Below are positions 2,501 to 57,561 of a stretch of DNA of 64,000 nt, piece after piece; the stretch's first letter is position 1; each line of letters opens with the position of its first letter. The stretch spans positions 45,496 through 109,495 of the forward strand of contig CAVYWA010000010.1 in the NCBI GenBank assembly GCA_963772165.1, given 5' to 3'. Origin of the DNA: an uncultured Bacteroidota bacterium. GTDB taxonomy: Bacteria; Bacteroidota; Ignavibacteria; UBA10030; UBA8401. Below the pieces are notes generated by a model. That model was not told where the DNA came from. It ran no database searches and was given only the letters and a program-made list of their open reading frames with translations. Position numbers and translations under genes: made by a program.

Positions 2501-3682
2501 GTGACTAATACAATCAGGACCGGTATGTTTGAAAAAGAGACTGAACAACTTATCGCGACGGTCCGTCAGGCAACGATCGGCGAAACCAAAGCCATCGGCT
2601 TGAGGGAGATTTTCGAATCGAATATCCTTTCAAACGTGAAGGTGTTTTTCCGTGCTGAAGTTGAGTGGATGCTCGAGACGGAGCGAAAACCGGAACCGCG
2701 ACCGTCGAAATTCAACTATAATCTCCCCGAGATTGCAATGCTGCGCGAACAAACCAACGCGCTGCTCATCCACAATTTTATTTTTTCAAAAGCTGATTTC
2801 GAAGCAACGCTGGATAAATGCGTCCACTTTTTGCTGAATTATCTCTGCCGTCCCCAGTGGACGTTGAACAGTTTTCTTTTTGAGGAGTCGGCACGGGCTT
2901 CGACGCAGCAAATCCTGTTGAAGCTCCGATATTGCAGGGACTATGCATACTTCCCGGATATCCTCCGCAGCTATCTTCAACAACGCGGCGTTGGAGAGAT
3001 GACGCTGGAGGAAGGAAAAAACCTTATCGCACGAATCGATGCCGAGGTTGTGAAAAACCATTCGAGTATAGAACTCGCCAAGATAACGCTGCCGTTGTTC
3101 GATTTTGTTGCGTATGCGCGGGCACACAACATGAGCGCCACCGCCAAAACAGTTCCGGCCCGGGCATTGATGTACTTTTTCGAAGACAAAAAAATTGGAG
3201 CGATGCACGAGCGGCTATCGCGCGAGCGTGAAGTGAACAATGTCAAAGAATTGAGCTACGGTCAGCTCGTCAACCTTCTCGAAAAAGTCCGGAGCGGCGA
3301 CGAGCACGCTCACGTTTTTGATGAACATGCCGAACCCCTGCCGGCACTTGACGATATTTCTCTCGATATGCCATCGCTCTCCCAGATAGTACAGGAAGAG
3401 GAAATGACCACCCCGAAACCGTCAGAACCGCCGAAACCCACCCCTCCTCTTTTTTCGCTCGAAGAAGAACGCACCATCATCAAACATGTCTTCCACCAGA
3501 ACGAAGAGCAATTCCAAGCTGCGGTAAAAGAAGCGCTGGCCGCTGCAACATGGGAAGACGCGGCGCTTTCGATCGACCATTTCTTTCTGATGAACGATGT
3601 GGAAGCGTTCTCAAAAGAAGCAATCCTTTTTACAAATAGAGTGCAAAGCAGATTTAGCGAAGGAGTAAAGAATAAATCCTAA
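2501..3682 (+). CDS. hypothetical acidic protein (393 aa), no recognised domain
   Basis: long ORF in codirectional gene string; no motif recognised by eye. Confidence 0.4.
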   Translation: MTNTIRTGMFEKETEQLIATVRQATIGETKAIGLREIFESNILSNVKVFFRAEVEWMLETERKPEPRPSKFNYNLPEIAMLREQTNALLIHNFIFSKADFEATLDKCVHFLLNYLCRPQWTLNSFLFEESARASTQQILLKLRYCRDYAYFPDILRSYLQQRGVGEMTLEEGKNLIARIDAEVVKNHSSIELAKITLPLFDFVAYARAHNMSATAKTVPARALMYFFEDKKIGAMHERLSREREVNNVKELSYGQLVNLLEKVRSGDEHAHVFDEHAEPLPALDDISLDMPSLSQIVQEEEMTTPKPSEPPKPTPPLFSLEEERTIIKHVFHQNEEQFQAAVKEALAAATWEDAALSIDHFFLMNDVEAFSKEAILFTNRVQSRFSEGVKNKS

Positions 3683-3701
3683 ACTCTAATGTCTAAATCC
3701 T
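3677..3701. repeat. left arm of 25-bp inverted repeat (tcctaaactctaatgtctaaatcct) bracketing the four-helix-bundle gene
   Basis: reverse complement of 4102..4126 matches 24/25. Confidence 0.55.
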
Positions 3702-3721
3702 CATTCTTTACGGGGGGGCGG

Positions 3722-4084
3722 ATGAAAAAATACGATTTGGAAGATCGGACGTTAGGGTTTGCAAAAGAGGTCATTCGTTTGGTCAACAAGGTATCAAAAA
3801 CACTACCGAACGTGGAAATCGCAAGACAGCTTGTTCGCCCATCGGGGTCCGTGGGCGCCAATGACATAGAAGCAAATGAATCTCTCGGAGAAAAAGATTT
3901 TGCAATGAGAATTAAGATATGTCGAAAAGAAGTCAAGGAGAGCCGCTATTGGCTTCAACTTCTCGAAAGCACTCCGGATTTAAGTGACAGCCAAGCTCAT
4001 CTCATTCAGGAATCTACAGAGCTAATGAAAATATTTGGAGCGATTTTAGAAAAAATAAAACAAAGGCAGCAACCAAATGAGTAA
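3722..4084 (+). CDS. four-helix-bundle protein (23S rRNA intervening-sequence protein family, PF05635-like)
   Basis: ~120 aa; motifs LxFAKEVIRL...ARQLVRPSGSVGANDIEANES...SRYWLQL typical of the family; start taken at MKKYDLEDRTLGF. Confidence 0.6.
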   Translation: MKKYDLEDRTLGFAKEVIRLVNKVSKTLPNVEIARQLVRPSGSVGANDIEANESLGEKDFAMRIKICRKEVKESRYWLQLLESTPDLSDSQAHLIQESTELMKIFGAILEKIKQRQQPNE

Positions 4085-4101
4085 TCTGTCTTTGTGATTT
4101 T

Positions 4102-4126
4102 AGGATTTAGACATTAGAATTTAGGA
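4102..4126. repeat. right arm of 25-bp inverted repeat (aggatttagacattagaatttagga)
   Basis: pairs with 3677..3701. Confidence 0.55.
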
Positions 4127-4137
4127 TTTTAACATTT

Positions 4138-5127: not shown

Positions 5128-5160
5128 TTGTTTGCGAAGGTCGTTTTTGGGGGGGGAAAA

Positions 5161-5310
5161 GTCATTGCGAGTCCTCGCCGAGTCGAGTCTTCGACCGATG
5201 TTCCTTATCGGGCCGAAGTCCCGAAGGGATCCCGTACAGCGGGACAATCCCCCCGTTAAATAAAGGATTGCTTCGCTCCGATCCTCGCAATGACTTTATT
5301 CTTCAAAAGA
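5161..5310. repeat. MITE/REP-like hairpin-rich intergenic element, copy E1 (TIRs gtcattgcgag / ctcgcaatgac)
   Basis: shares ordered blocks gaagtcccgaagggatcccgtacagcgggacaatcc ... ggattgcttcg ... ctcgcaatgactttattcttcaaaag with copies at 37.3 kb, 47.7 kb (inverted) and 48.6 kb. Confidence 0.6.
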
Positions 5311-5371
5311 TTCCATACCCTGAAGCGCAGCACATTGAAATTCACTCCGTTTCTTTGTAGATTCATCCTCA

Positions 5372-6424: not shown

Positions 6425-8094
6425 ACCAACCAATGCGTAAGGGTGGCGTTATGTCTCTTGACAGCGATTTACAGTCAATTCAGGAAGTCCGGGAGCTTCT
6501 TACGAAAGCGAAGGAAGCGCAGCTTGCATTTCGCGCATATTCCCAGGAACAAGTCGACCGAATTGTGCAATCGATGGCAGATGCAGGCTTCGCCGAGGCC
6601 GAGCGTCTTGGACAAATGGCACACGAGGAAACGGGATTCGGCAAACCCGAGGATAAAAAAAAGAAGAATGAATTTGCAACGAAGCGAGTCTATGAATCGA
6701 TAAAAGATCTCAAGACCGTCGGCGTCATACGCGAAGACAAAGAAAAACAGATTGTCGAGATCGGTGAACCGATGGGTGTTGTCGCAGCATTAATCCCTTC
6801 CACCAATCCGACGTCGACAGCAATGTTTAAGGCGATTATTTCGGTGAAAGGCCGCAACGGGTTCGTCGCAAGCCCGCACCCCCGCGCAGCAAAATCAACG
6901 CTTGAAGCCGTACGGATTGTCTCGGAGGCTGCCGAGCGGGCTGGGGCGCCGCACGGATTGATCGCATGCATGTCGCTTCCTTCAATCGAGGGCACAAACG
7001 AATTAATGAGGCACAGGCTCACTGCGGTAATTCTCGCCACGGGGAGCAATCCGATGGTGCGCGCTGCCTACAGCTCGGGCAAGCCCGCACTCGGCGTCGG
7101 ATCCGGAAATGTTCCCGCGTTCATCGAACGCACGGCAAACATAAAAAAGGCCGTTGCAGATATTGTCTCCGGAAAAATGTTCGACTGGGGAGTCCTTTGT
7201 TCAACCGAATCGGGAGTCATCATCGATTCTCCGGTCAAACTCCAGGTGGTCGATGAGTTCAAAAAACTGAAAGGCTATTTTGTCAATCCCGATGAGAAGG
7301 AAAAACTCAGCCGGACAATGTTCGACCCGAAAGGTGCAATCAATCCGGATATCGTTGGTAAATCCCCTGCATTCATCGCGCACAAAGCCGGGTTTGAAGT
7401 CCCCGCGGAGACCTCGTGTTTAATTGTTGAGTTGCCCGACGTCGGAAAGGAGTACCCTCTTTCCCGTGAAAAATTATCACCGGTCCTTGCGCTGTTTACC
7501 GCAGACGGATGGCGCGAAGGCTGCGAACGATGTATCGAGATGCTGGAGTTCGGAGGATTAGGGCACACAATGGCGATTCATTCGTCGGACCGTGACATCA
7601 TTATGAAATTCGCCCTCGAAAAACCTGCATGCCGGATCCTCGTCAACACCCAAGCCGCGCTCGGCGCAGTCGGATATACCAATGAACTCCTTCCGTCGAT
7701 GACCTTAGGCCCGGGTACATTTGGGAAGTCGATCATTTCAGAAAACGTCTCCGCAAAGCATCTCATCAACATCAAACGGCTTGCTTTTGAGACGAGGCCG
7801 ATCAATAAGGAGACGAGAGACGGGACTCAGAACCCAAAACTCAGAACCCAGAACTCAGGACTCAGCACGCAGCACGCAGCACCTGCAATTCATAACGCCG
7901 TACCCGGAACCCCAACTCACAGTTGGATGGAAGAAATAGAGGAACGGATCCGATTGAAGGCTGGAAATCAGCCGCTCCATACCAAGCCTCACGTTGAAGA
8001 AGCAGTTTCTAAAGATGAAAACAAGGAGGCGAAATACGGAAATGGAATGACGATTGACGATGTCGAACGAGTGATGAAAGAATTCCAGAAGTAG
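6421..8094 (+). CDS. CoA-acylating aldehyde dehydrogenase (EutE/PduP-like) with ~100-aa low-complexity C-terminal extension
   Basis: ALDH-family core (~460 aa) with catalytic Cys region VLCSTESGV; start ATG overlaps ruvB stop (ATGA); C-terminal tail encoded by imperfect tandem ACTCAGAACCCA-type repeats. Confidence 0.7.
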
Positions 8095-8096
8095 TT

Positions 8097-8160
8097 AAAA
8101 GTTATAAGTGAAAAGTAAAAAAATAATCAGCACACCACTTTTCGCTTATAACTTTTCACT
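8097..8160 (+). terminator. long hairpin (20-bp stem, 20-nt loop) after aldehyde dehydrogenase, followed by T-rich cacttttaactt x2
   Basis: 8097..8116 aaaagttataagtgaaaagt pairs with 8137..8156 acttttcgcttataactttt (one G-U). Confidence 0.35.
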
Positions 8161-8184
8161 TTTAACTTATCACTTTTAACTTCC

Positions 8185-20484: not shown

Positions 20485-20491
20485 ACCCATA

Positions 20492-21185
20492 GATGACCGT
20501 CACCTTAAAGGTGACGGTCATCTATCATTGAACAAAACCGTTTTGATTTTCTCCCTTTCTTGTGGCACGTAATCTTCAACAAAACTCTTATAATTTTTTA
20601 AACCTCCAAACTGATGTAAAACTATCTGCAACGTGATAATGGGATCCAGCCGCAAACCGAAATATGTCCGGCAGCTGCTGTGCGGCCATTCTTCTGGTAA
20701 ATCGACCAAGCAAGCTCGAACGGGATTCAGGTGGATATAACGGGACAGATGAACCAAGTACAAGTCGTTATCGATATGCTTCATCTTGTATTTCCCTTCA
20801 AACAAATGTCCGCTTCGAGAACGTTCTTTGTTGATTGCTTTCGCATAACCATCGCATACATTTCTCATGAAACCTGAAATTCCGAAAGGTTCAAGCTGAT
20901 AGATAATGAAGTGAAAATGGTTCGGCATCAGGCAATATGCGATAATTTCTATTGAAGAAGGATTGTTTGCTTCCAACATTCGCTGCCGAAAATAGAGAAA
21001 GTTACGCTCATTAAAAAAGATTTCGTTCTTGTTAACGCCCCGATTATACACATGGAAAAATTCATCCGCCGATTGTAGATCCTTTGTTTTCGTTGACATG
21101 AATACTTCCCCCGAGTTAATTCAAAGCGACCATCGTTTTACGATGTGAAATCCAGATGACCGTCACCTTAAAGGTGACGGTCATC
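20492..21185. mobile_element. IS200/IS605-like element: Y1 transposase bounded by identical 31-bp perfect palindromes
   Basis: gatgaccgtcaccttaaaggtgacggtcatc at 20492..20522 and again at 21155..21185. Confidence 0.75.
20518..21099 (-). CDS. tnpA: IS200/IS605-family (RAYT-like) Y1 HUH transposase
   Basis: HVYNRG ... CLMPNHFHFII (HuH) ... RYIHLNPVRA (catalytic Tyr region); 193 aa. Confidence 0.8.
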   Translation of the reverse strand: MSTKTKDLQSADEFFHVYNRGVNKNEIFFNERNFLYFRQRMLEANNPSSIEIIAYCLMPNHFHFIIYQLEPFGISGFMRNVCDGYAKAINKERSRSGHLFEGKYKMKHIDNDLYLVHLSRYIHLNPVRACLVDLPEEWPHSSCRTYFGLRLDPIITLQIVLHQFGGLKNYKSFVEDYVPQEREKIKTVLFNDR

Positions 21186-21201
21186 TTATGGTAACGGCAA
21201 G

Positions 21202-28967: not shown

Positions 28968-30817
28968 TTATTCAACTCCTTCTCCGTCGAAATAATGACG
29001 TTGCTCGCCATTTCATAGATCTTGCTCTTTTCTTCCTGCCTGGAACTTGCCGGAGCGAATCGGGCAAACTCGCATGCTTCAAGGCATTCCTTTAAACGTG
29101 TAACAACGTCTTGCGAGATGGGTTTTCCTTCCAGCTGTTTCATGACATTTTCGATGGAAAGCTCCGCCCTGTCGATAAAGAGTTTGTCCGAAACGTAGGC
29201 CCAGAGCGCGCGAGAGATTTCCGCATAAAACGCTTCAGCGTTCTCCGAGCTTAACAGGACTTTTGCTTCCTTTAACTTTTTTGATGCGGTCTTCATCGCT
29301 TTACGGGATCGAAACGATGCAACGTCCGATAATTCCTTTAAAGTCTTTTGCCGGTACGTTGCGAGTCCGACGAAAGCCAGCAGCGGCACTATCGTGATGA
29401 TTGCCAGCGTCGCGAGCGGAATAACGTCTCCTCCTTTTCTGCGGAACGACCCGGCGTTCGTCTTGATGAAGCGAATATCCTGGTTTAACAGCTTGACATC
29501 CTCTTTCGAAATCCCGGAGACAATTTGCGGCGCCTCAGCACTTCCCTTCTCAACCGTGAGGTCGATGGCTCCCGATTTAAGAGCGACGTACTTTTCTTTC
29601 GCGGGGTCGAAGTATGAAAATTCAAGAGGCGGGATTCTTTTTTGTCCCGGGTAACGGGGGACCAGCAGCCACTCGAAGGTCTTAGAACCATTTACGACGC
29701 TCGTACTCCGGTCGATCGTCTCATTAACTTTTGGGTCGTATTTTTCAAAATCGTTGGAGACTTCAAGGTTCGGCGCTTCGAGAATCTTAATATTGCCGGT
29801 GCCGCCGATCGTCGCTTTCAGCGACAACGGCTCGTTTGTTTTTACCGTTGCGCTGCTGACACTCGTGTTGAGATTAAATTTTCCCACCGCCCCTTTGAAA
29901 GAAGCGGGGACATTATTTTTCGGCAGCGGGAGCACCGTAATTTTTACGGCAGGGCTTTTAATATTGATATTCGACGTTGCGACATTATTGAAGAATGGGT
30001 CATTGAAAAACTGGTCGAAGAAATCGTTCGTACGTTTACGGTTCTGCATTTGCACTTGGCAAATAATTTCCAGCGGATTAATTTCGAGCGTTCCCGACTG
30101 CGTCGGAAATAATGCGACCTTCTTCAGTAAGCCGGCCTGGTACTGCTTCCCGTTCACGACCTCCGTCGTCAATGATACTTGTTGCGGCACTGCAAGCTCT
30201 TCTCCCCAAAATCCCGTCATCGCAGGAAGTTTTTCGATCGTATAGTTCGTGATACGAACCCTGGTGTAGACCTTAAACGTGACAGTGACTTGCTCTCCGA
30301 GAAACACGCGCGAACGGTCGACGGTCGCGCGCAGAAAAAGATTGTCGCCGACCTGAACATTGGAGTCGGCATTCTGGCCCGCTGCCGCAGATTGCTTCGG
30401 CTTGGCTGCGGCTTTGACGACAGTGATTTCTATCGGCTGCGAAGAATACCGTTTCCCGCCCCTTTCAATGGTCGCCGCGCCGAGAGTAAGCTTTCCCGCT
30501 TCGCGAGGCTGCAGGACATAACTGTACGTCACCGAAGATGAGACAGAGCCGTTGACAATTTGAACGCTCGAAGACTGGTTGGGGCCGGAAAGCACCATGA
30601 ACTTGCCAAGGTCGGGCAGCTGGGGAATACTTCCACCCCCCATGCCGCCGCCGTTCAACGTCAATTCCAACGTAAACTGCTCATCCACAGCAACAGTGTT
30701 CTTATCGACCGATGCCGTAAACGAAACGTTCTGCGCAGCGAGCAATAAAGGAAGGGTCAACACCATCAGCCCGATCATCGACGAATAGCTTTTCACTTTT
30801 AACTTTTCACTTTTCAC
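28964..30817 (-). CDS. batD: BatD (oxygen-tolerance protein)
   Basis: 617 aa, signal peptide, single C-terminal TM near ...VIPLATLAIITIVPLLAFVGL; position in operon. Confidence 0.7.
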   Translation of the reverse strand: MKSEKLKVKSYSSMIGLMVLTLPLLLAAQNVSFTASVDKNTVAVDEQFTLELTLNGGGMGGGSIPQLPDLGKFMVLSGPNQSSSVQIVNGSVSSSVTYSYVLQPREAGKLTLGAATIERGGKRYSSQPIEITVVKAAAKPKQSAAAGQNADSNVQVGDNLFLRATVDRSRVFLGEQVTVTFKVYTRVRITNYTIEKLPAMTGFWGEELAVPQQVSLTTEVVNGKQYQAGLLKKVALFPTQSGTLEINPLEIICQVQMQNRKRTNDFFDQFFNDPFFNNVATSNINIKSPAVKITVLPLPKNNVPASFKGAVGKFNLNTSVSSATVKTNEPLSLKATIGGTGNIKILEAPNLEVSNDFEKYDPKVNETIDRSTSVVNGSKTFEWLLVPRYPGQKRIPPLEFSYFDPAKEKYVALKSGAIDLTVEKGSAEAPQIVSGISKEDVKLLNQDIRFIKTNAGSFRRKGGDVIPLATLAIITIVPLLAFVGLATYRQKTLKELSDVASFRSRKAMKTASKKLKEAKVLLSSENAEAFYAEISRALWAYVSDKLFIDRAELSIENVMKQLEGKPISQDVVTRLKECLEACEFARFAPASSRQEEKSKIYEMASNVIISTEKELNK

Positions 30818-30824
30818 TTGTCTA

Positions 30825-31550
30825 CTACCAGTCTTTTTCTACATTGCCCTTCACAACCTGTTTCTTGTGAAGTTGTTTCTGAACGTTCTTCTCGTCGTTC
30901 TTCAACGCATCGAGAATTCGTTCAGCATCCGCACGAGACATCTGTTTCTCCTGTTGCTGTTGCTGCTGCTTCTGCTGCTGTTGGTCTTGCTTTTGCTGAT
31001 CTTGTTTGTTTTGATTCTGCTTATCTTTGTCCTGCTGTTTCTTCTGCTGATCCTTCTGCTGGTTCTTATCGTTTTTGTTTTGCTTGTTCTGCTGTTGTTT
31101 CTGCTGCTGTTGCTGCTGCTTTAACATCTTCTCGGCGTAGGCGAGATTGTACTTCGTTTCTTCGTCGTCGGGGCTCAGCTTCAACGAGCGTTTGTAATCA
31201 TTGATGCTTTCCTGATAATTCTTTTGTTCAAGATGCACGTTGCCAATGTTGTGTTGAAGCTGGGCCTGAATTTTTGGCACGTTTGTCTTTGTAAGAGCGG
31301 TCTGGTAATTTTGCACCGCCTCATCATACCGCTGTTGTTTATACAATGCGTCGCCGAGGTCAAAGTATCCCTGCATCACCCGGTTGTCTTTCTCCAGCGA
31401 TTTCCGGTATTCAGCTTCGGCATCGGCAAATTTTTGATCTTTGTACAGGGCATTCCCGTCGCTGATGTGCGACCGGACGGTCTGGGCGGCGGCGAGCGAG
31501 CTCACGCATACAGCCAAAAGAAGCAATTTATTGAAAGACCCGGATTTCAT
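30825..31550 (-). CDS. batC: BatC (TPR protein) with long Q/K-rich low-complexity tail
   Basis: signal peptide + TPRs; C-terminal (QQQK)n encoded by CTG/CAG-rich tract. Confidence 0.65.
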   Translation of the reverse strand: MKSGSFNKLLLLAVCVSSLAAAQTVRSHISDGNALYKDQKFADAEAEYRKSLEKDNRVMQGYFDLGDALYKQQRYDEAVQNYQTALTKTNVPKIQAQLQHNIGNVHLEQKNYQESINDYKRSLKLSPDDEETKYNLAYAEKMLKQQQQQQKQQQNKQNKNDKNQQKDQQKKQQDKDKQNQNKQDQQKQDQQQQKQQQQQQEKQMSRADAERILDALKNDEKNVQKQLHKKQVVKGNVEKDW

Positions 31551-35580: not shown

Positions 35581-35586
35581 TTTTTT

Positions 35587-35706
35587 CAATGAACAATCAT
35601 CAATGAACAATGATCAATGATCAATGGATGAAATGCTTTTCTTGTGTTGATTGTTCATTGATGATTGTTAATTGTTCATTGATGATTGTTAATTGTTCAT
35701 TGATCA
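35587..35706. repeat. imperfect long inverted repeat with internal 21-bp tandem repeat (ttgttcattgatgattgttaa x2) at moxR-DUF58 junction
   Basis: left arm 35587..35627 caatgaacaatcatcaatgaacaatgatcaatgatcaatgg; right arm 35648..35706; overlaps moxR stop codon. Confidence 0.6.
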
Positions 35707-36693
35707 TGGTACTTCGATTTTATTGAGAATCTCCTGCACAATATTCTCCGACGTCACTTCTTCCGCTTCCGCTTCGTATGTGACGGCAACGCGGTGGCGC
35801 AGCACGTCGAGGCTGACGGCGCGAACGTCTTCCGGGATCACATAGCCGCGCCGTTTGATAAAAGCGTATGCCTTTGCTCCCAGCGCAAGATTAATCGTTG
35901 CACGCGGCGACGCGCCGTAGCTGATTAATTGCGCGATGCCGGGAATCCCGTACTCCTTCGGGTTCCGTGTCGCAAAAACGATCTCGAGAATATACCGTTC
36001 AATTTTTTCGTCCATATAAATTTCCCCCATCACTCCCCGTGCCTTCATAATATCTTTCGGCGATATGACGGGTTTGACGTTCGGTTCTGTTCCGTTGACG
36101 TTTTGCCTCATGATTTGAAGCTCTTCTTCTTTCGTCGGGTAGTCGATCCTCACTTTGAGCATGAAACGATCGACCTGGGCTTCCGGCAGGGGATATGTCC
36201 CTTCCTGCTCGATCGGGTTTTGCGTCGCCAGCACAAGGAACGGTTCTTCAAGTTTGAACGTTTCTTCTCCTATGGTGACTTGCCGTTCCTGCATTGCTTC
36301 GAGCAACGCGCTCTGCACTTTTGCCGGTGAGCGGTTGATTTCATCGGCTAAAATGAAATTGGCAAAAATCGGCCCTTTCTTTGTTTGGAATTTCGAGTCC
36401 TTTTGATTGTAGATAAGGGTTCCGACCAGGTCGGCAGGGAGCAAATCGGGAGTAAACTGAATACGTTGGAATTTCGCCTGAATTGCTCCCGCGAGGGTTT
36501 TCACGGCCATCGTTTTCGCGAGACCGGGAACTCCTTCGAGAAGGATGTGCCCGTTGGCAAGCAAGCCGATGAGCAATCGCTCCACCATATTTTTCTGTCC
36601 AACAATAACTTTCCCGACTTCCAAAGTGAGCAGGTCGACAAACGCACTTTCGCGCTGGATCTTCTCGTTGATAGCCTTAATATCGTGCTCCAT
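35704..36693 (-). CDS. moxR: MoxR-family AAA+ ATPase
   Basis: Walker A GVPGLAKT, Walker B ILADEINR, 329 aa. Confidence 0.9.
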   Translation of the reverse strand: MEHDIKAINEKIQRESAFVDLLTLEVGKVIVGQKNMVERLLIGLLANGHILLEGVPGLAKTMAVKTLAGAIQAKFQRIQFTPDLLPADLVGTLIYNQKDSKFQTKKGPIFANFILADEINRSPAKVQSALLEAMQERQVTIGEETFKLEEPFLVLATQNPIEQEGTYPLPEAQVDRFMLKVRIDYPTKEEELQIMRQNVNGTEPNVKPVISPKDIMKARGVMGEIYMDEKIERYILEIVFATRNPKEYGIPGIAQLISYGASPRATINLALGAKAYAFIKRRGYVIPEDVRAVSLDVLRHRVAVTYEAEAEEVTSENIVQEILNKIEVP

Positions 36694-36875: not shown

Positions 36876-37262
36876 ATGACAAAAAAGTTGCTGGCGTTTT
36901 CTATCCTGTCGATGCTTTTTGCCGCAGGCTGCGGCGAAAAAAAGGCCGATCCGGCGAAGATCGACGAAGCTACGAAATTGATTGACAATAAAGATTTTGA
37001 AAAAGGCATCGCCATGATCGACGACATTGGCAAGGCAAGCCCGAGCGATGAACTGGTCAAGAAAGCGCAGGTCGATGCACACATGAAGTACGCGAATTTT
37101 CTCATGTACGAATCACTGCTGCCTCCGAAAGAAAAATATCCGTCAGCGCTGCGCCAATACCGGCTTGTCGCCACGATCGACCCCGATAACGCCGAAGCAA
37201 AGCAGAATATTAATTTGATTGAAGGTATCTACAATCAGATGGGGCGCCCGATTCCGCAGTAA
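36876..37262 (+). CDS. small lipoprotein with TPR-like helices
   Basis: lipobox LFAAGC; 128 aa. Confidence 0.5.
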   Translation: MTKKLLAFSILSMLFAAGCGEKKADPAKIDEATKLIDNKDFEKGIAMIDDIGKASPSDELVKKAQVDAHMKYANFLMYESLLPPKEKYPSALRQYRLVATIDPDNAEAKQNINLIEGIYNQMGRPIPQ

Positions 37263-37279
37263 TGAATTTGATCGGCAGC

Positions 37280-37500
37280 AGGTATTTTAGAATAAAGTTA
37301 TTGCAAGAAGAGAAGCAACAAAGTCCCCAAAGGATTCCTTACAGCGGGACAATCCCTTTATTCTTCAAAAGACCCCAGGTCGTGGGATCTTTTGAATCAA
37401 CGGTCATTGCGAGGCGTTTTTTGCCGAAGCAATCCCCATTAAACAAAAGGATTGCTTCGTCGCTCCGCTCCTCGCAATGACTTTATTCTTCAAAAGACCC
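37280..37500. repeat. mosaic of MITE/REP-like element fragments (copies E2a/E2b plus an inverted degenerate TIR piece) upstream of tRNA-Val
   Basis: 37321..37372 truncated copy; 37402..37500 near-complete copy ggtcattgcgagg ... ctcgcaatgactttattcttcaaaag. Confidence 0.6.
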
Positions 37501-37621
37501 CACGACCATTTGATTCTTTCTATAGCGGCGGATTTGTATCTTTGATAAATCACTGGCGCTTAGCCAGTCCCCGCCAAAAAGCGGCGGGACTTCGCTGGAG
37601 CTGCCTTCAAGATTTAAAAGC

Positions 37622-37696
37622 GGGCGCTTAGCTCAGCTGGTTCAGAGCGTACGCCTCACACGCGTAAGGTCGCAGGTTCGATCCCCGCAGCGCCCA
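37622..37696 (+). tRNA. tRNA-Val (anticodon CAC)
   Basis: cloverleaf folded by eye: acceptor GGGCGCT/AGCGCCC, D-arm GCTC/GAGC, anticodon stem TACGC/GCGTA loop CTCACAC, T-loop TTCGATC (one A-C mismatch in T-stem), discriminator A, no encoded CCA. Confidence 0.85.
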
Positions 37697-40700: not shown

Positions 40701-41062
40701 GACGGCAACAGCGGGGTCGCGATCCCCACCCGATTTTGGACATTTAATGCGGCAATATGAACGTTGGTGCCGACGTTAAAAGTGACGGTGATGCCCATCG
40801 ACCCGGTGTTGGTGTTTGTACTCTGCATGTACTCCATGCCCGGAGTACCATTGACCTGCTCTTCAATAGGAGTGGCTACCGTTTGTTCCACCGTTTGCGC
40901 ATCAGCGCCGGTATACTGTCCGCTAATTGAGACGGCGGGGGGGGTGATGTTCGGATATTGATCAACAGCCAGGTTCGCTATACAAATAATACCCGATATC
41001 ATTAACACGAGAGAGATAACGATAGCGGTAACCGGACGTTTGATAAATGTATTAGCGATCAT
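37786..41062 (-). CDS. RND efflux transporter (AcrB/MdtC-like), C-terminal ~60 aa displaced by a 1-nt indel in a CCC run near 37985
   Basis: 1039-aa ORF 37943..41062 with 12-TM RND architecture; ORF 37786..37989 encodes the expected C-terminal tail FPVLFVIITRLSYGKKELDYLQ in +1 frame. Confidence 0.8.
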
Positions 41063-44000
41063 TCCTGGTCAAGATTATAGATATCGCGCGACCTTTGTAA
41101 ATCATACTCCAATTCCGGGTCGATATTTTGTTGCTCCACTCTCTTCGTTTTTTCCATGAGCTCTTCATGATGAGCGTGGAGATAGTCGAGCTTTGCCTGG
41201 CCATACGACAGCCGTGTGATGATGACGAAAAGCACCGGCACGATGAAAATAGCAATTGTCGTAGCCGCCAGCATGCCGCCGAGAACGGTAAACCCGATAG
41301 TTCTGCGCGCTATCGCTCCGGCTCCTGTTGCAAACACCAACGGCAAGACACCAAGGATGAATGCCATAGAGGTCATCACGATAGGCCGCAAACGGAGCCG
41401 CACCGCTTCCATGGTGGATTGGATAAGCTCTTCCCCCCGGTCAACACGCACCTTTGCAAACTCTACGATCAGGATCGCGTTCTTGGCGGCCAGCCCGATG
41501 AGCGTGATGAGTCCTATTTGCGCATACACATTATTCGAGATGCTCGGCAGCAAAGTAAGCGTAAGGATGGCGCCAAAAGCCCCGATCGGTACCGCCAGCA
41601 AGACCGAGAAAGGAACGGACCAGCTTTCGTAAAGCGCCGCGAGAAAAAGAAAAACGAAGGTGATCGAGAAAACAAAAATATAGATCGTCGTTGAACCTTC
41701 CTTGATTTCTTCGTAGCTCAACCCCGAGTATTCGTAGTCATACCCCTCCGGCAACACCTTCTTCGCCACCTCTTTCAAGGCATTCAGTGTTTGAATACTG
41801 CTGTACCCCGGAGGAGATGCCCCCTCAATTTCTGCGGACCGAAAAATATTAAAATGCGATATCAGCGGTGCAGCTTCTACAGGCTCGTAACTAACCAGCG
41901 TTCCAAGGGGAACCATTGCTCCCGCCTGATTACGGACGTAATATTTGTCGATGTCCGATACTGTCGCACGGGCCATGGTATCTGCCTGAATCACCACATG
42001 AAAAGTTCGGTTGTATGTCGTAAAATCGTTGACATAAATACTCCCCATATACGCCTGGATCGTCGTGAAGACATCTGCAATATTCACTCCCAGCATTTCA
42101 CATTTTTCCCGATTGACTGTGAGGTTATAGTTGGGAGTGTGGGCAGAATAAAAACTGTAGGCATGAGAGATCGCCGGATTTTTATTTGCCTCACTAATAA
42201 AGTTATTAACGACTTTTTCAAATGCATGAATATCATCGTTGGTATTGCGCTGTTCTATCTGGAAGCTGAAACCGACCACCGACCCTACACCCGGAATTGG
42301 CGAAGGCTGAATGACCTGAACGTTGGCGTTGGCAAGACCGGCATCGATGATGCGCTGTTGCATGACATGGATGATACCCGGGACTTGCTCACTTGATTTG
42401 GAACGGTCATCCCATGGTTTGAGCTGGCAATAAATGGTACCGCAGTTTGAATTGGTTGCATTGGTCACAACATTCAAACCGGACAATGCTGCGTAATGCC
42501 CTTCGCCCGGAGTTGACGCTACCACCGCCATCAGCTTCGTCATCACTGCAACAGATTGGGCTGTAGAAGATGCTGGAGGCAATTGAAACGTTATGTAGAG
42601 GTTTCCATCGTCTTCGGAAGGGATGAATCCTGTTGATTTGTTTTGAAATAAGAATACCGCTCCGATACAAATGCAAAGAAGGAGGATGACAACATACTTC
42701 GATCCCTTGATGCTGCGTTTTACGCCCTCGGAGTATTTATCGGTGAGTTTATCGAACCAGCTGTTGAAAACAGCGAAAAACCGGCCTATTCCCCGGGGAG
42801 CCACGCCTTTCTGCGGCGGCTTGAGAAGAAGGCTGCAGAGTGCCGGCGTCAACGATAAAGCGATAAAAGCGGAAAGCATTACCGAGATCGCAATGGTGAT
42901 CGCGAACTGTTGATACAAGCGCCCTACGATTCCCGGTATAAATCCAACAGGGACGAAAACGGCTGCCAGGATCAATGCAATAGCTACAACGGGGGCCGAA
43001 ATGTCTTTCATCGCCTGGTACGTGGCCTCTTTTGCCGAGAGGTGATGTTCGTCCATATAATGCTCCACCGCTTCGACGACAATAATAGCGTCGTCCACCA
43101 CGATGCCGATCGCCAGAACAAAACCGAACATGGTGAGCGTGTTGATCGTAAAGCCGAGCGGGATGAAAAAACAGAACGTTCCCAAGATCGAGACGGGAAT
43201 TGCAAGTACAGGGATGAGCGTGGTGCGAAGGTTCTCAAGGAACAAATAGACGACGAGGGCGACAAGGGCCAGCGCGAGAAGAAGCGTGACAACAACCTCA
43301 CTCATGGAAACTCTGACAACCGTCACTGATTCAAAGGGGACACTGTAGTCAACGTCCGTGGGAAAAGAGTTTTTCAATTGGGCGAGTACTTATAAACACC
43401 CGTTGCCGTTTCAAGGGCATTGCTTCCCGGAGCCTGGTAAATGAGAAGACAGGAAGCCCGATGTCCATCCACAAATGAGTTGCTCGAAAAAGTGAACTTG
43501 CCCAGCTCTACCCTTGCGACGTCCTTCAGATAGACCAGCTCACCGGTTGACGGCTTTGTTTTGACGATAACATTTTCAAAATCCGACACCTTGCTCAAGC
43601 GTCCGTTGACAAGAATTCCTAATTCAAATGTCTGCGTCTTTTGTTGAGGCGGTACACCCGCTGAGCCCGCTGCCACCTGTACATTTTGCGCGTTCAACGC
43701 AGAAATAACATCCGTAGGAGTCAAACCGTAGCTTGCCATTTTTTCCGGATCCATCCAGATGCGCATACTGAAATCGTCCGTGAATCTACTGATGCTGCCG
43801 ACGCCGGGCACCCGGAGTAACGCATCCTGCACAAAGATATTCGTATAATTATCGAGGAACGTGATGTCATGTGTTCCCTGCGGTGCGAAGATGGCAACCA
43901 TCATGAGCATGCTGGGATTCAACGCCCGCACCGTAAGTCCGAGACGGCTCACTGCCGCAGGCAATAACGGCGTGGCAATGCTGACACGGTTTTGAACATC

Positions 44001-44318
44001 CAGCGTTGCAATATTGATGTCCGTTCCGATGTCAAACGTTACGTTCATCGACATCAAACCGTTATTGGTGTTATTGCTTTGCATGTACTCCATGCCCGGA
44101 GTACCGTTCACCTGCTGTTCGATGGGAGTGGCTACCGTTTGTTCAACGGTCAGCGCATCGGCACCCGTAAATTGACCGTTCACTTGAACGACGGGGGGCG
44201 TGATTTGAGGATACTGCTCGACAGGCGAGTTAAAGATACAGATGATACCGGTGATCACTAATATGATCGAGATAACGATTGCAGTGACCGGTCTTTTGAT
44301 AAAGATATTAGCGATCAT
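41059..44318 (-). pseudogene. second RND efflux transporter (MdtB-like paralogue) split by 1-nt deletion in an A run at ~43378
   Basis: ORFs 43374..44318 (N-terminal 314 aa) and 41059..43377 (772 aa) align end-to-end with the intact paralogue across ...ETATGVY/VLAQLKNSFPTDVDY. Confidence 0.7.
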
Positions 44319-47092: not shown

Positions 47093-47687
47093 TTCAATGA
47101 TATTTTTTGCACAAAAGTAATTTTCTGCTTTCCGATGCTTTTTACGCCAACCCGATGGCGGGCAATCGCTTGTACCTGTCTGTGATTTCACAACTGGTAT
47201 TTCCACGCATTTGTTATCCATTGTAAGAACACTTTAGACAAAAGATATTAAGAGATGGTTGAATGGTTGTGCTTGATAGCTCATATAAATTTTGCAGCTC
47301 CAGCATGTAGTGTTTTGGCTGCGCTCGCCAAGCGATAAAACTGTAAGTAAAGCGGCAAGATTGTGATAAGAGTTTTCGTAATGGGAATTAAAAAATGTTT
47401 GATGTAAATTGGGGGAATCGCGATAATGCAACCAACTTTGAAAGCTGGTACTCTCTTTCGACGAACCTCTAACCCCTCGGGCCGAGGCTCCCGTAAGGAA
47501 CCGAAGACCACGAAACAACCGAATATCCTGCCGATGCGAGATCCTGCATCGGTTGCCTTCCCAAAGAGTTCCTTTGGAAAGGCATCACTTCGCCATTTGC
47601 AGGATTGACCCACGGGCGTAAAGTATTGTCAATAATATAGCAAAAAAAAAATCTATCTCAAGCTCCCTCGAATTATGGCCGCGGGCT

Positions 47688-47793
47688 ACTTTGAAGAATA
47701 AAGTCATTGCTTCTCCCGCTCGAAGAGCGGGAGAAGCAATCCCCATTTAAAAAATGGATTGTGCCACTGTACGGGATCCCTTTGGGACTTCTG
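47688..47793. repeat. MITE/REP-like element copy E3 (inverted orientation)
   Basis: reverse complement reads gaagtcccaaagggatcccgtacagtggcacaatcc...ggggattgcttc...gcaatgactttattcttcaaag. Confidence 0.55.
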
Positions 47794-48020
47794 CAAAAAA
47801 CAACCAGGAACGACCTTTGATTTAAAATGATCCGCTACCCGCATTTTGGTAGTCCGTTTATTGCAGGCTATTGAATATCTTGTTAATTTCACTTGGCAAA
47901 TTTTTCAGGAAACATTTTTCTCCGGGTAGTGCCCAATCTTGCCGATCTTAATTGTTATAAGAAAATAAATCACAAAATGGTTAATGAATAAAATCAAAAC
48001 AACGTAGGAGGGTTCATATC

Positions 48021-48362: not shown

Positions 48363-48683
48363 ATTTTTGTAAAATATAAAAGCATCGGCAAAAAACAGAG
48401 GTTGCTTTTTCATGGATGATTGAGAACTGATTCCTCATTTATTCAGGACAAAATACAGAAACACAGCCCCCGTTCCTTTGCAGGCGTTTTGGGTTTGACC
48501 AAACAGGAATTGCCAGGTGGTGAATCAATTTGAGAAGACTGAATCAAAAACGGATGTCATGCCCATGAAAGTGGGCATCCCTTGCGTGGTAAAAAATGAA
48601 TATTTGGATTCTCGCCGAGTCCCTACGGGTCTATCGACCCGAAGGGTCGTTGACGAGTCTTCGACCCGCTTTCGCGAGACCTT

Positions 48684-48986
48684 ATGTTTAAAAATGAGTC
48701 ACTACCTAAAACTCCGATCACGGGAGACCTGAAATTTAAGAACATTTCGACGAGTTATGTTGAGCGGCAAAATCTTACCATGCGGATGAACATGAGGCGA
48801 TTTGAGCGGTTGACAAATGCGTTTTCAAAGAAGGTTAAGAATCACGCTCACGCCGTAGCTTTACACTTCATGTATTACAATTATTGCCGAATTCATAAGA
48901 CGTTAAGGGTGTCTCCGGCTATGGCGGCGGGTATCGAAAAGCATCTATGGTCTATTGAGGACTTGGCGAGATTGCTTCAGGCGTAA
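48684..48986 (+). pseudogene. IS1-like transposase remnant (C-terminal ~100 aa only)
   Basis: VERQNLTMRMNMRRFERLTNAFSKKVKNH...YNYCRIHKTLRVSPAMAAGIEKHLWSIEDL pattern parallels IS1 InsB C-terminus; no N-terminal DDE region present; degenerate MITE piece (48608..48685) abuts it. Confidence 0.55.
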
Positions 48987-49358
48987 GGGTAAGCTAAATT
49001 CTTTTATTGGAGAGTTCTTCAATATATTAGAAAACAAAGAGTACATTTTCTCATAAAGCAAATCTTTGCCAATCGTTTTTGCTAATAACTTTATCGATTT
49101 CGATTCATCAAGCCTTTTAAATATCCCTATCATAACAGCTTCAAAATAGATTCTTGGTTTATGGGATCTATTCTTTTTAGCAATGGACGTTACATTTAAT
49201 TTTAGTGCAAAGTTATTTTTGTTATCTTTTCTTAAATAAAGAGTCACGATTGCCGAAAACTCCACACCCAATTCCTCTCCCTTTGCTTCTCCTGGAAATT
49301 GTGGAAAAGCGCTTTTGAAACTCTCGACAAAATATCCCTGTAGTTTAAGCTGGTTCAT
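48945..49358 (-). CDS. SecB-like chaperone candidate (third gene of toxin-antitoxin-chaperone module)
   Basis: 137 aa; block-wise parallels to SecB by eye: LQGYFVESFKSAF ~ QIQRIYTKDISFEA; PRIYFEAVMIGIF ~ AFLCEVQQGGIF; KDLLYEKMYSLFSNILKNSPIKEFSLPL ~ [29 protein letters not shown]; 14-nt overlap with antitoxin gene. Confidence 0.5.
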   Translation of the reverse strand: MNQLKLQGYFVESFKSAFPQFPGEAKGEELGVEFSAIVTLYLRKDNKNNFALKLNVTSIAKKNRSHKPRIYFEAVMIGIFKRLDESKSIKLLAKTIGKDLLYEKMYSLFSNILKNSPIKEFSLPLRLKQSRQVLNRP

Positions 49359-49761
49359 ATTCTTTTTGGCTAACCTTGTTTTCTACTATTATTGTGGTGA
49401 TAATTGATTCTTTAAAATTCAATTTGAGATTTTTGCCCTTCTCAAAATTCTTGTAGATTTCAAAGTCTTGATATTCGTACTTGATGTATGGTTTAATGCC
49501 TAATGAAAATAAAATCTTAACTAACGTTCCGAGCCTTATATTTGCGCTTCCATCCAATACCTGTGTTACGTATGATCTCGAACAACCTAAAGTCTTGGCT
49601 AATTCTGCCCTACTGATAATCTTTTGATTCATTCTTTCTGCAATTATCTCTCTTATGTCTAATAATAATTTTTCCGTATAGAGAGACCAATCCTTTTCAA
49701 TAAATTCCATTGAATCATTAAACTCATCTTCAATTTGTTTGTTTTTAATAAATTGAGGCAT
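49345..49761 (-). CDS. HigA-like XRE-family antitoxin with aromatic-rich C-terminal extension (possible chaperone-addiction segment)
   Basis: HTH ISRAELAKTLGCSRSYVTQVLDGSANIRLGTLVKILFSLG; C-terminal KPYIKYEYQDFEIYKNF...; 138 aa vs ~95 aa typical. Confidence 0.75.
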   Translation of the reverse strand: MPQFIKNKQIEDEFNDSMEFIEKDWSLYTEKLLLDIREIIAERMNQKIISRAELAKTLGCSRSYVTQVLDGSANIRLGTLVKILFSLGIKPYIKYEYQDFEIYKNFEKGKNLKLNFKESIITTIIVENKVSQKEYEPA

Positions 49762-49765
49762 ACAA

Positions 49766-50137
49766 TTACTCCATTTCTTTAATACAGCCGTCCCTTAGCG
49801 TAATTGCCCTTTCTATCTCCTGAATATCGGTCTTATTTTTCTTTTTAACATATCCGTGGGTAATTATCGCATCATTTCCAAACATGAAGAAGAATAATCG
49901 AACGGGCTTCGGTTTAAGTTCATATAAATTACCGTGGCCCTTTAGTTTTTCCGAAATAGAAGTATTTTCAACGGGGAATTTTCGATCAGAGAGAAATTTT
50001 ATGTGAAGATTAATCTTGTGCTTCAATTTCTCGTTAATATGCGGAAAAAGCTCTTCTTGGTAAATAGGAATATCTTTTCCTATTCCCATCGCCCTCACCT
50101 TTCTTTCCTCTCCTGAATGTATGAGTATAATGCGCAC
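49766..50137 (-). CDS. Gp49-like (DUF891, RelE/HigB-superfamily) toxin
   Basis: LKGHGNLYELKPKPVRLFFFMFGNDAIITHGYVKKKNKTDIQEIERA matches phage Gp49-like toxin motif; toxin-first order as in HigBA. Confidence 0.75.
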   Translation of the reverse strand: MRIILIHSGEERKVRAMGIGKDIPIYQEELFPHINEKLKHKINLHIKFLSDRKFPVENTSISEKLKGHGNLYELKPKPVRLFFFMFGNDAIITHGYVKKKNKTDIQEIERAITLRDGCIKEME

Positions 50138-50369
50138 TACTAAGTTAAGTAATTAATTAACATTTGTCAATAAAAAAAATGAGAATTTTTCATGAATGTA
50201 TTAATGAAAACGATCTAAGTTACTTGTAGAATTCACATTTGTCAAGTTTTAATTTAATTAAGCCAAATTCATTTTTTTTAAGCCTTGTTTGGCCACGTCT
50301 TATGTTTAAAAATTCAAACTGAGACACTACCAATTGCCGGCCTACCTTTATTGATTGATTCTAAAATAG

Positions 50370-52917: not shown

Positions 52918-53146
52918 TATTTTTTTCATCTCGTTCCCGATGCCCTGTTGGGAACGAGATGAAAACTTTCGCGTCTTTTCGTGAGCTTAGTGGATTGTTT
53001 GCCGTTCTGCATATATCTCGTTCCCAATCTCCGATGGGGAACGAGATAAATAACTATGCATACGAAAACACCCGAATGTTTTTTAGGGGCAGCGATCTGC
53101 AGAAATACAATTTTTCCGTGCACTTCGTGAGCTTAGTAGATTGCTT
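52918..53146. repeat. structured repeat block: two hairpins with conserved 11-bp stems (A 52918..52950, A' 53005..53037) interleaved with two 33-bp direct repeats (B 52968..53000, B' 53114..53146)
   Basis: stems atctcgttccc/gggaacgagat identical, loops differ; B units ttcgtgagcttagtRgattgYttgcYgttctgc. Confidence 0.55.
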
Positions 53147-53190
53147 GCTGTTCTGCGAAAAACCAGTCAAGTACTCGAAGCACATTTCCA

Positions 53191-56671: not shown

Positions 56672-57164
56672 AGAAAAGCCTTTCGTGCAATAATGGAAGA
56701 ATCTTTCGGGGATATGAAAAATTATAACGATTGTTTTGACCGTAGGTTTCAATCTATAGTAACAATGCTCGTGCTTAAAATCAATTGTCTTCAGTGCGAA
56801 ATCGGGCGCGGTGCGTGCCATACTATTAAAAACAGCGCTTTGCATCAAGCCATCGCAATAGATTGGAATGTTGCAACACGCCCCCTTCCCCTCTCTCCGA
56901 CGCACACGCCCTCGCCGCAGAGGGGAGTTTTAAGGAGAGAAGTTCAGACATCCTCCGGTGCCGACAGGAATAATAAAATGGATGTCATCCTACTGAGCAT
57001 TACGCTTTAAATTATGTCATAGAGAAAAATTGTGAATTTGTGACGTGGTCCTGTTATATTCCCCTCTCTGCGTAGGCCTGCGGGGCAAGAGAGAGGGGTT
57101 AGGGGTGTGTCAGAAACCTGGGTAATCATGACACGAAAAATCATTCCATATAATCCAACATTAA

Positions 57165-57497
57165 AAAAAAGTAACCCGTGATCTGCGCAACAACAGTATT
57201 ATTGGGGAAGTGTTGCTCCGGAAAAAATTGCGTCATAAACAAATGCTCGGCTACGACTTCCACCGGCAAAAGCCGATCGACCAATTCATCGTTGATTTCT
57301 TTCGCATTGAATTAAACCTTGCAATTGAGATTGACGGCGGTTCCCATGAGGGGGCTGAAGCGCAGGTGAAGGACGCTGCGCGGCAAGAACGATGAGAATC
57401 CCTAGGTGTAAAGTTTTTGAGGTTCAAAGGATCCAACACCAGAAAAAATATTCGAGATGTATTGGATATCATTGAGCAGTGGATAAAAACGAACGCA
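57165..57497 (+). pseudogene. DUF559 (very-short-patch-repair-like endonuclease fold) gene with in-frame TGA at 57393..57395
   Basis: YDFHRQKPIDQFIVDFF...LAIEIDGGSHE...RQER*ESLGVKFLRFKGSN...VLDIIEQWI follows DUF559 consensus through the stop in the same frame. Confidence 0.5.
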
Positions 57498-57561
57498 CTA
57501 TAACACACCCTCGCCGCAGAGGAGAGTAGACGATATGCGGGTTCGTTTGGAAGCATCAAAA

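Follow-up and report, generated by a model that had tools for sequence, protein, structure and literature searches.

The window analysed here is a stretch of 64,000 nucleotides (nt) from an uncultured Bacteroidota bacterium (CAVYWA010000010.1 of assembly GCA_963772165.1, positions 45,496-109,495, forward strand), and the object of study is a hairpin-rich intergenic element that lies between obg and ruvB and has relatives elsewhere in the window. A first-pass annotation had placed blocks of this repeat at 5161-5310, 37280-37500, 47688-47793 and 48608-48685, and all of them are present, far above chance. It had also labelled the repeat as resembling miniature inverted-repeat transposable elements (MITEs) or repetitive extragenic palindromic (REP) sequences. 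Both halves of that label apply, with a core of REP type and arms like those of MITEs of the insertion sequence (IS) family IS1, but the ends, the tail and the anatomy given with it did not stand. The copies have a two-layer anatomy in which REP-type units lie inside outer arms, and we lean towards regarding the element as one copy of a small, lineage-specific, non-coding and non-autonomous repeat family of about 110-180 bp organised in these two layers. Individual elements measure 109-234 nt, and about 76 kb of DNA of the species was inspected in all, within which the family occupies four loci. The copies are called A, B' with B, C and D, and a block of 33-36 nt, GTCCCRAAGGGATCCCGTACAGYGGSACAATCC, common to A, B' and the inverted C with 82-89% identity, is called module X. 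Their parts are as follows.

5139-5319, plus strand: copy A, the most complete, between obg and ruvB, beginning 12 nt past the obg stop codon
5139-5160: left arm of A, degenerate (GGTCGT...)
5161-5171: REP head of A, GTCATTGCGAG
5174-5196: hairpin module of A, also found in D
5218-5250: module X of A
5251-5264: AT-rich loop of A
5265-5294: inverted REP unit of A, read on the minus strand
5295-5319: right arm of A, including a T-rich tail
37266-37273 and 37508-37515: 8-bp flanking repeat, ATTTGATC on the left and ATTTGATT on the right, 7 of 8 positions identical, abutting the ends of B' plus B
37274-37377, plus strand: copy B', with a degenerate left arm (GGCAGCAGG...TTTAGAATAAAG) and a degenerate REP unit (TTATTGCAAG..GAAGCAAC), beginning 12 nt after the stop codon of the co-oriented upstream gene
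37323-37355 and 37356-37377: module X and tail of B'
37378-37507, plus strand: copy B, a 130-nt near-perfect palindrome with GGTCGTGGGRTCTTTTGAA at each end
37403-37435 (plus) and 37449-37481 (minus): REP units of B, with a 13-nt AT-rich loop between them
47677-47815, minus strand: copy C, inverted, with the right arm and tail at 47677-47702
47703-47742: REP unit of C, with a fully paired 16-bp stem, followed by a loop
47756-47788 and 47789-47815: module X of C and its degenerate left arm, ending in ACGACC
48516-48706, plus strand: sister miniature element of 191 nt that contains D, with an IS1-type left end, GGTGGTGAATCAATTTGAG
48555-48581: canonical REP of the CGTC type, TGTC ATGCCCAT GAAA GTGGGCAT CCC
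48608-48676: hairpins of D, comprising two exact blocks in common with A and an interrupting 33-nt hairpin
48688-48706: one-mismatch copy of the end motif at the IS1-type right end of the D element, ...GAGTCACTACC

The limits drawn at first pass were too narrow, as copy A runs over about 5139-5319, B' plus B over 37274-37507, C over 47677-47815 and the D element over 48516-48706. The sequence GTCATTGCGAG, then taken for a terminal inverted repeat, sits inside the element as the head of a REP-type hairpin unit, and the tail TTTATTCTTCAAAAG, then placed in DNA beyond the element, is actually the inner part of the right arm. Copies had been described between convergent and tandem genes; B' and B sit between a gene for a 128-aa protein and tRNA-Val, but copy C lies instead between divergent genes, namely an operon for a TolC/resistance-nodulation-division (RND) efflux system on the minus strand and a YCII gene on the plus strand. 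The absence of a transposase encoded inside the copies was borne out, and a protein search with the sole open frame through copy A found no homologues in public data.

The family relationship of the copies follows from shared sequence in paired and unpaired parts alike. Chance levels were taken from expected numbers of hits and, for the 11-bp block GTCATTGCGAG, from 100 shuffles. This block is found exactly four times in the window (5161 and 37403 on the plus strand, 5284 and 37471 on the minus), and with up to one mismatch it occurs five times against 1.4 expected, a number reached by none of the shuffles. The tail CTTTATTCTTCAAA is likewise present in four exact copies, with an expectation of 0.9 even when two mismatches are permitted, and CGAAGCAATCC has eight matches against 2.2 expected. 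D and A have two colinear exact blocks in common, CTCGCCGAGTC and GAGTCTTCGACC, and a repeat finder independently matched stretches of 21-50 nt between copies in both orientations, with 82-100% identity. Hairpins that arose by chance or convergence, or segments duplicated locally, none of them related as a family, would be an extremely improbable account of these matches. Hairpins with a C-GAA-G loop are generally common in the intergenic DNA of this genome, as that account would have it, but the shared blocks include unpaired loops and tails and recur at four unlinked loci, and the observed counts were equalled by no shuffle. Because of the block homology, the shuffle counts and the exact matches of the end motif described below, the account is already refuted.

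The claim that the element folds into multiple hairpins held as well, with strong folds of both DNA and RNA relative to shuffles. As single-stranded DNA the copies fold far better than shuffled sequences (z -5.3 to -6.1), and the full copy B, as RNA, folds end to end with -71 kcal/mol (z -11.8).

The inner layer consists of one or two units, usually an inverted pair around an AT-rich loop, together with small GAA-loop hairpins, and copy B couples one short with one long unit. Read from its tag, the unit comprises (C/T)GTC, ATTGC, GA, G(hairpin)C, GAA, GCAAT and CC, in that order. The pattern GTCATTGCGAG-N(0-30)-GAAGCAATC was found in at least 120 IMG/VR contigs, with about 180 units among the matches listed, and an 81-nt consensus dimer matches plasmids or chromids of Novosphingobium, Methylosinus, Methylocystis, Methylobacterium, the cyanobacterium Aulosira and Halomonas. 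One Novosphingobium replicon matches the consensus dimer in at least 40 places; the record of pSA1 from this genus carries no annotation. The unit is thus distributed over several phyla and phage-like contigs.

The statistics that follow refer to 184 units outside the window (182 for the sequences that fill the stem), among the matches listed. The stem ATTGC...GCAAT is present in every unit and starts with A-T, as in the CGTC superfamily discussed below. The base preceding GTC is T in 94 units, C in 82, G in 4 and A in 4; in the window, four of the five GTCATTGC units have A there and the fifth has G, GTC itself being unchanged. The commonest tails are CTC (69), CCA (51) and CCC (23), the first C being fixed by the search pattern, and the units of the window end in CCC or CCT. 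An inverted partner lies within 150 nt of 79 of the 184 units, and the strict pairs all have their GTC tags pointing outward (21/21), with a median spacer of 25 nt. The midpoints of the units fall inside crude calls of open reading frames (ORFs) in 29% of cases, against 83% for random positions.

Inside the constant stem, sequence is free to vary and pairing is kept. The 182 copies hold 99 distinct fills, 73 of which form hairpins, directly or through a second GA/GA internal loop, and their stems are made of unrelated compensating sequences (GCCT-tctt-AGGC against GCAT-tctt-ATGC, for example, or TCCCGA-taaa-TCGGGA). In a permutation test the observed stem length was equalled in 0 of 2000 shuffles, and the apical hairpin therefore covaries. 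This variable hairpin has 2-8 bp and most often ends in a 3-nt GNA loop: GNA triloops make up 82 of 141 apical loops, mostly within GCGNAGC, and the four commonest fills are GCGAAGC, GCGCAGC, GCGTAGC and GCGGAGC. The d(GCGNAGC) mini-hairpin described by Hirao and co-workers is exceptionally stable as DNA and is found in phage origins, ssi signals and N4 promoters (review PMC13037366); it equals the commonest apical hairpins of the unit, and is itself a biophysical structure rather than a repeat family.

When the genes around the 182 IMG/VR units were clustered, only structural genes of phages or gene transfer agents were found, and no recurrent enzyme. Some of the phage-like contigs (L008, L011, L020, L034, L041 and L051) carry single GTCATTGCGAG...GAAGCAATC units in successive intergenic gaps, up to six per contig, often directly 5' of a ribosome-binding site and ATG and in either orientation, and L051 has a tandem array of four units with a 33-nt period.

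The 21-mer GCAATGACTTTATTCTTCAAA from the tail gave only four chance matches, in AT-rich Firmicutes-like DNA, in the GTDB representative genomes, JGI metagenomes and IMG/VR, and the tail-bearing family is not found beyond this species in those collections. Full-text literature searches with literal sequences returned unrelated primers or nothing, and the sequence is absent from the REP papers of Nunvar, the RepRanger paper and the supplements of Di Nocera 2013. Rfam 15 was scanned with the window, with the individual copies at permissive E-values and with 12 related loci, and gave no match at gathering thresholds, only noise at E of about 0.1-1.

Among described repeats, the units most resemble the CGTC-tagged REP superfamily (Di Nocera, De Gregorio, Rocco 2013, BMC Genomics 14:522, PMC3733652), which includes dRS3 of Neisseria and RPE-4 and RPE-6 of Rickettsia. 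Its members have an unpaired CGTC tag (variants TGTC and CCTC), an uninterrupted stem of 8-9 bp starting with A-T, a loop of 4-5 nt and a 3-nt tail that is mostly CCA; they occur mainly as inverted dimers, often heterodimers, with spacers of tens of bp, in intergenic DNA near the 3' ends of genes. They are known mostly from Alphaproteobacteria, and from Bacteroidetes too, and have no associated transposase (PMC3733652). The units described here share the A-T start of the stem, the inverted dimers including short/long pairs, the intergenic position (just past a stop codon for A and B', with the divergent setting of C as the exception), occurrence in Alphaproteobacteria and Bacteroidetes among other phyla and the lack of an adjacent dedicated transposase; the GTC-type tag and the short CCN tail agree in part. 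The unit at 48555-48581 fits the published description exactly (TGTC, an 8-bp stem, GAAA and CCC). The GTCATTGCGAG units differ in their 5-bp outer stem, GA/GAA internal loop and variable, covarying apical hairpin, and in the base before GTC, which in the window is A or G and not C or T. They are CGTC-like rather than proven members of CGTC-1 to CGTC-4, the comparison having been made with the published description and not with the consensus figure.

The outer layer is formed by arms that, in the alignment of copy ends, extend about 27 nt past the REP heads and read (T)GGTCGTGGGRTCTTTTGAAGAATAAA followed directly by GTCATTGCGAG. The motif GGTNGTG-N6-TTTGAR occurs exactly at only four sites of the window, which are both ends of copy B and both ends of a neighbouring island; the ends of A, of C and of B' on its left are degenerate. 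The signature of IS1-family ends is GGnnnTG (PMC6807381), and, as judged from sequence, the outer ends match those of a decayed IS1-family element of the same window. This element lies 700 bp from copy C, and its features are these.

48515-50331, plus strand: island of 1817 bp with IS1-type ends
48508-48514 and 50332-50338: 7-bp direct repeat AATTGCC flanking the island
48684-48986: ORF of 100 aa, C-terminal remnant of an IS1-family transposase (PF03400)

Relatives of the remnant are named "IS1 family transposase" by a source, and no full-length homologue was found, since the best 120 matches are all fragments of 70-146 aa. The island carries three small genes, two of them of Gp49 and HTH_3 type (toxin-antitoxin-like). 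It is present in the window, in contig_22406 and in L140, and is missing from contig_147133 and contig_44291. The end sequence of the island, GGTAGTGTCTCAGTTTGAA, is found unchanged around a different IS1 remnant in contigs that are unrelated. Copy D adjoins the IS1 remnant and lies within the island, which is bounded by IS1-type ends and not by REP units. Copies A, B and C have no transposase gene next to them in the window, where the Pfam scan covered 40 ORFs as one alignment with 25 of 53 families listed and was not an exhaustive transposase screen.

Naked REP dimers of other organisms offer a comparison for the arms. Their flanks show a complementarity of 7.9/30 against 7.5 at random, and none has a target-site duplication (TSD) of 4 bp or more. 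Since REP dimers elsewhere have neither extended arms nor a TSD, the arms are a separate, lineage-specific shell. REP dimers inside larger palindromes have been described, namely CGTC-1 dimers of H. neapolitanus in a 41-bp palindrome and GTAG-15 dimers of A. variabilis embedded likewise (PMC3733652); the present element is similar in having a REP dimer between conserved, lineage-specific outer inverted arms, and dissimilar in the IS1-type arm ends and flanking duplication, which suggest a transposon shell rather than a target palindrome.

The first-pass annotation had proposed that target-site duplications be sought, and the outcome is mixed: the 8-bp repeat ATTTGATC/ATTTGATT abuts the ends of B' plus B and looks like such a duplication, and none can be read at A or C. 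The island has 7 bp. A 109-nt short allele in L138 bears the same ATTTGATC/ATTTGATT flanking repeat; in this allele, also present in L139, B' is joined to one right arm and the 109 nt make up the whole element.

Variation among close relatives also bears on mobility. The window is 99.5% identical to metagenome contigs in ENA, and the proteins nearest to its RuvB are those named by their sources as belonging to metagenome-assembled genomes of Bacteroidota. Five assemblies at 97-99.5% identity were compared: the window, ERZ25039479 contig_22406, ERZ25039529 contig_147133, ERZ25039540 contig_44291 (also labelled L126) and one Logan contig. A stretch of 125 nt that is nearly all of copy B is present in the window, contig_22406 and contig_147133 and missing in contig_44291 and the Logan contig; L138 and L139 are without it, and a 22-nt direct repeat of the tail stands at its bounds. 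Copy C is unchanged in contig_44291, and its modules are found in L135 and L140. Between strains at 99.5% identity, copy A differs by a 17-nt hairpin indel and by loop substitutions, and in D the module common to A is split by a 33-nt hairpin. In congeners with 93-97% RuvB identity (L129-L133), copy A is absent between obg and ruvB, and 21 kb of their syntenic DNA holds none of the family modules. The obg-ruvB spacer measures 87 nt in L131 and L133; L129 and L130 hold other sequence there, as unrelated stretches of about 130-150 nt (L129 9780-10000, L130 9829-10000) stand where copy A would be. The spacer 5' of the conserved ruvB promoter region is a turnover hotspot. Mobility or turnover of the family is thus supported by the empty orthologous site in congeners and by the presence or absence of the 125-nt stretch in strains.

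Two further length differences were noted in the strain comparison. A tandem repeat of 68 nt lies directly 5' of tRNA-Val (37556-37632), its units beginning with the first 11 nt of the tRNA, GGGCGCTTAGC; the number of units varies between strains, from about 1 in the window through about 5 in L138 to 9.1 in L136 and L137 (L136 6676-7297). At 56785-57554 the window has 769 nt in place of the 129 nt found at 16941-17070 of contig_44291.

Taken together, we judge it somewhat better than an even chance that the copies are MITEs of IS1 type that have a REP dimer at their core and are mobilised in trans. According to this model, an IS1-family transposase of the DDE type would act on the outer ends, and transposition would leave duplications of 8-9 bp. 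An intact IS1-family partner would have the ends GGTCGTGGGRTCTTTTGAAGAATAAAGTCATTGCGAG. The hairpin-rich interior would then be remodelled by slippage and by palindrome-driven deletion and insertion; candidate cases are the indels in A (a 17-nt hairpin) and at B (125 nt) and the hairpin of 33 nt within D. Transcripts would be affected only incidentally, for instance by termination or protection of 3' ends downstream of obg and of the gene at 36876-37262.

IS-derived MITEs, of the IS1 family or of more general kinds such as Correia/NEMIS, RUP, ERIC and Nezha, resemble the element in their length of 110-180 bp and in having no ORF. It also has the terminal inverted repeats of IS1-family MITEs, of about 27-38 nt, with GGTCGTG ends laid out as in the IS1 element of the same genome, and it is intergenic, polymorphic for insertion and predicted to give a transcript that folds strongly; at one locus, 8 bp at its flanks look duplicated. 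It departs from IS-derived MITEs in its interior, made of REP-type units that are found alone in other phyla, in its single clean duplication, and in that no autonomous partner with identical ends was seen in the 76 kb.

Several points weigh against an IS1-type origin of the copies. The likeness of the arms to IS1 ends spans 12-13 specified positions and was recognised post hoc. An intact IS1-family transposase with these exact ends was not found in the DNA of the species inspected, which holds the remnant only. Since the 125-nt indel at B lies between 22-nt direct repeats, deletion explains it as well as insertion does, and of three testable loci just one shows a clean duplication, the ends of A and C being degenerate with no repeat to be read there. 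Longer palindromes that enclose REP dimers have been described without invoking any IS (PMC3733652), and the RAYT-like Y1 transposase of the window could be the acting enzyme instead.

The last two of these points lead to the main alternative, which we consider fairly unlikely and in which the copies are pure REP or REPIN-type elements, inverted dimers handled as single-stranded DNA by an HUH enzyme of the Y1 class, the arms being an extended palindrome and the likeness to IS1 coincidental. A candidate enzyme is encoded in the window.

20518-21099, minus strand: Y1_Tnp gene, IS200-like and of the HUH type of REP-associated tyrosine transposases (RAYTs), 193 aa (PF01797, E 2.9e-9)
20491-20523 and 21154-21186: perfect 33-nt palindrome AGATGACCGTCACCTTAAAGGTGACGGTCATCT flanking this gene, with no further copies in the window

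The predicted protein has NHFH and YIHLNP motifs and belongs to class 2 of the Y1 transposases. A tagged hairpin, inverted dimers and intergenic positions are REP architecture, the apical GCGNAGC mini-hairpin is exceptionally stable as DNA (PMC13037366), REP dimers within longer palindromes are on record (PMC3733652), and the naked dimers of other organisms have no TSD. However, the Y1 gene is bounded by an unrelated palindrome and not by REP units, and no case is known of a Y1 gene flanked by REPs of the CGTC type (PMC3733652). Transfer by an HUH enzyme also leaves unexplained both the 8-bp flanking duplication and the exact match of GGTNGTG-N6-TTTGAR to the IS1 ends. REP doublets forming hairpins (REPINs) and their RAYTs, known for GTAG REPs (Bertels and Rainey 2011, PMC3116915), are similar to the present copies in that two inverted units with a spacer form a larger hairpin that is non-autonomous and dispersed in intergenic DNA, and unlike them in the tag, which here is GTC with no GTAG, and in the surroundings of the sole Y1 gene of the window, bounded by AGATGACCGTCACCTTAAAGGTGACGGTCATCT.

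A second alternative places the function of the copies in RNA, as an intrinsic terminator, a stabiliser of 3' ends or a small RNA kept by selection for that role, and we regard it as very unlikely. Copies A and B' do each follow a co-oriented gene, starting 12 nt past its stop codon, REPs are generally located after 3' ends (PMC3733652), predicted folds are strong, and the unit of C followed by GACTTTATTC has a terminator-like score just 5' of a promoter-like site. On the other side, no Rfam family matched, a simple terminator scan flagged C only and not A or B, and the T-rich tail of full copies is engaged in pairing with the left arm. Copy C lies between divergent genes and has no co-oriented upstream gene in strains without the island; moreover, the element is missing from the same site in close relatives and is dispensable among strains, and fragmentary and nested copies exist. 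A primary RNA role is therefore not supported, and a role as terminator or stabiliser is speculative. Among other candidates, the readings as a non-coding RNA gene and as CRISPR were rejected. So were an integron attC site and a kink-turn (K-turn), in both cases by reading the sequence against the known motif: an attC core is GTTRRRY, and no such core is present, and the internal loop of a K-turn is 5x2, but that of the unit is 2x3.

The significance of IS1-type MITEs with a REP-dimer core, if this is what the copies are, lies in the REP field. REP-type palindromes are among the commonest non-coding repeats of bacteria, and their CGTC branch has no known mechanism of spread; REP dimers enclosed by IS1-ended arms, with a duplication at the flanks, hint at how such dimers could move. 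The REP-type unit itself, with its interrupted stem and a covarying apical hairpin that is usually d(GCGNAGC), is on record from four or more bacterial groups as well as from phage-like contigs. The five assemblies at 97-99.5% identity provide population snapshots of hairpin-sized indels, and the practical effect of the copies is one of spurious ORFs and strain-variable intergenic regions, with possible effects on the expression of neighbouring genes. The element is a known kind of selfish repeat in variant form and not a new category of system. A bolder idea, which we hold to be distinctly unlikely, is that CGTC-type REP hairpins, for which no mobilising enzyme has been known since their description in 2013, may travel in this Bacteroidota lineage at the centre of miniature transposons of IS1 type, giving REP dimers a DDE-transposase route of spread, and that the GTC-ATTGC-GA...GAA-GCAAT core capped by d(GCGNAGC) could be a functional single-stranded DNA signal, such as a priming site or a hairpin promoter, rather than merely selfish DNA.

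Other features of the window were recorded along the way. Three of its ORFs had no record in exact-protein look-ups. A gene for a four-helix-bundle '23S rRNA intervening sequence protein' (3689-4084) is bracketed by the 28-nt inverted repeat AAATCCTAAACTCTAATGTCTAAATCCT (3674-4129), and its product has 131, 120 or 95 aa in different relatives. Of two tandem paralogues of AcrB type, 75-79% identical to each other, the second (41059-44318) is broken into two ORFs; it is more fragmented in contig_44291 and is likely a pseudogene or an assembly frameshift. Another small repeat family lies 3' of a GH2 gene (52922-53156) and comprises two hairpins whose stems are 13 bp long, TCATCTCGTTCCC...GGGAACGAGATGA, and a direct repeat of about 33 nt, TTCGTGAGCTTAGTRGATTGYTTGCYGTTCTGC. 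AT-rich repeats with a period of about 7 nt, of the types ACTTTTC/ACTTTTA and CAATGAA/CAATGAT, form inverted arrays at gene ends (8093-8182, 30785-30833 and 35586-35718).

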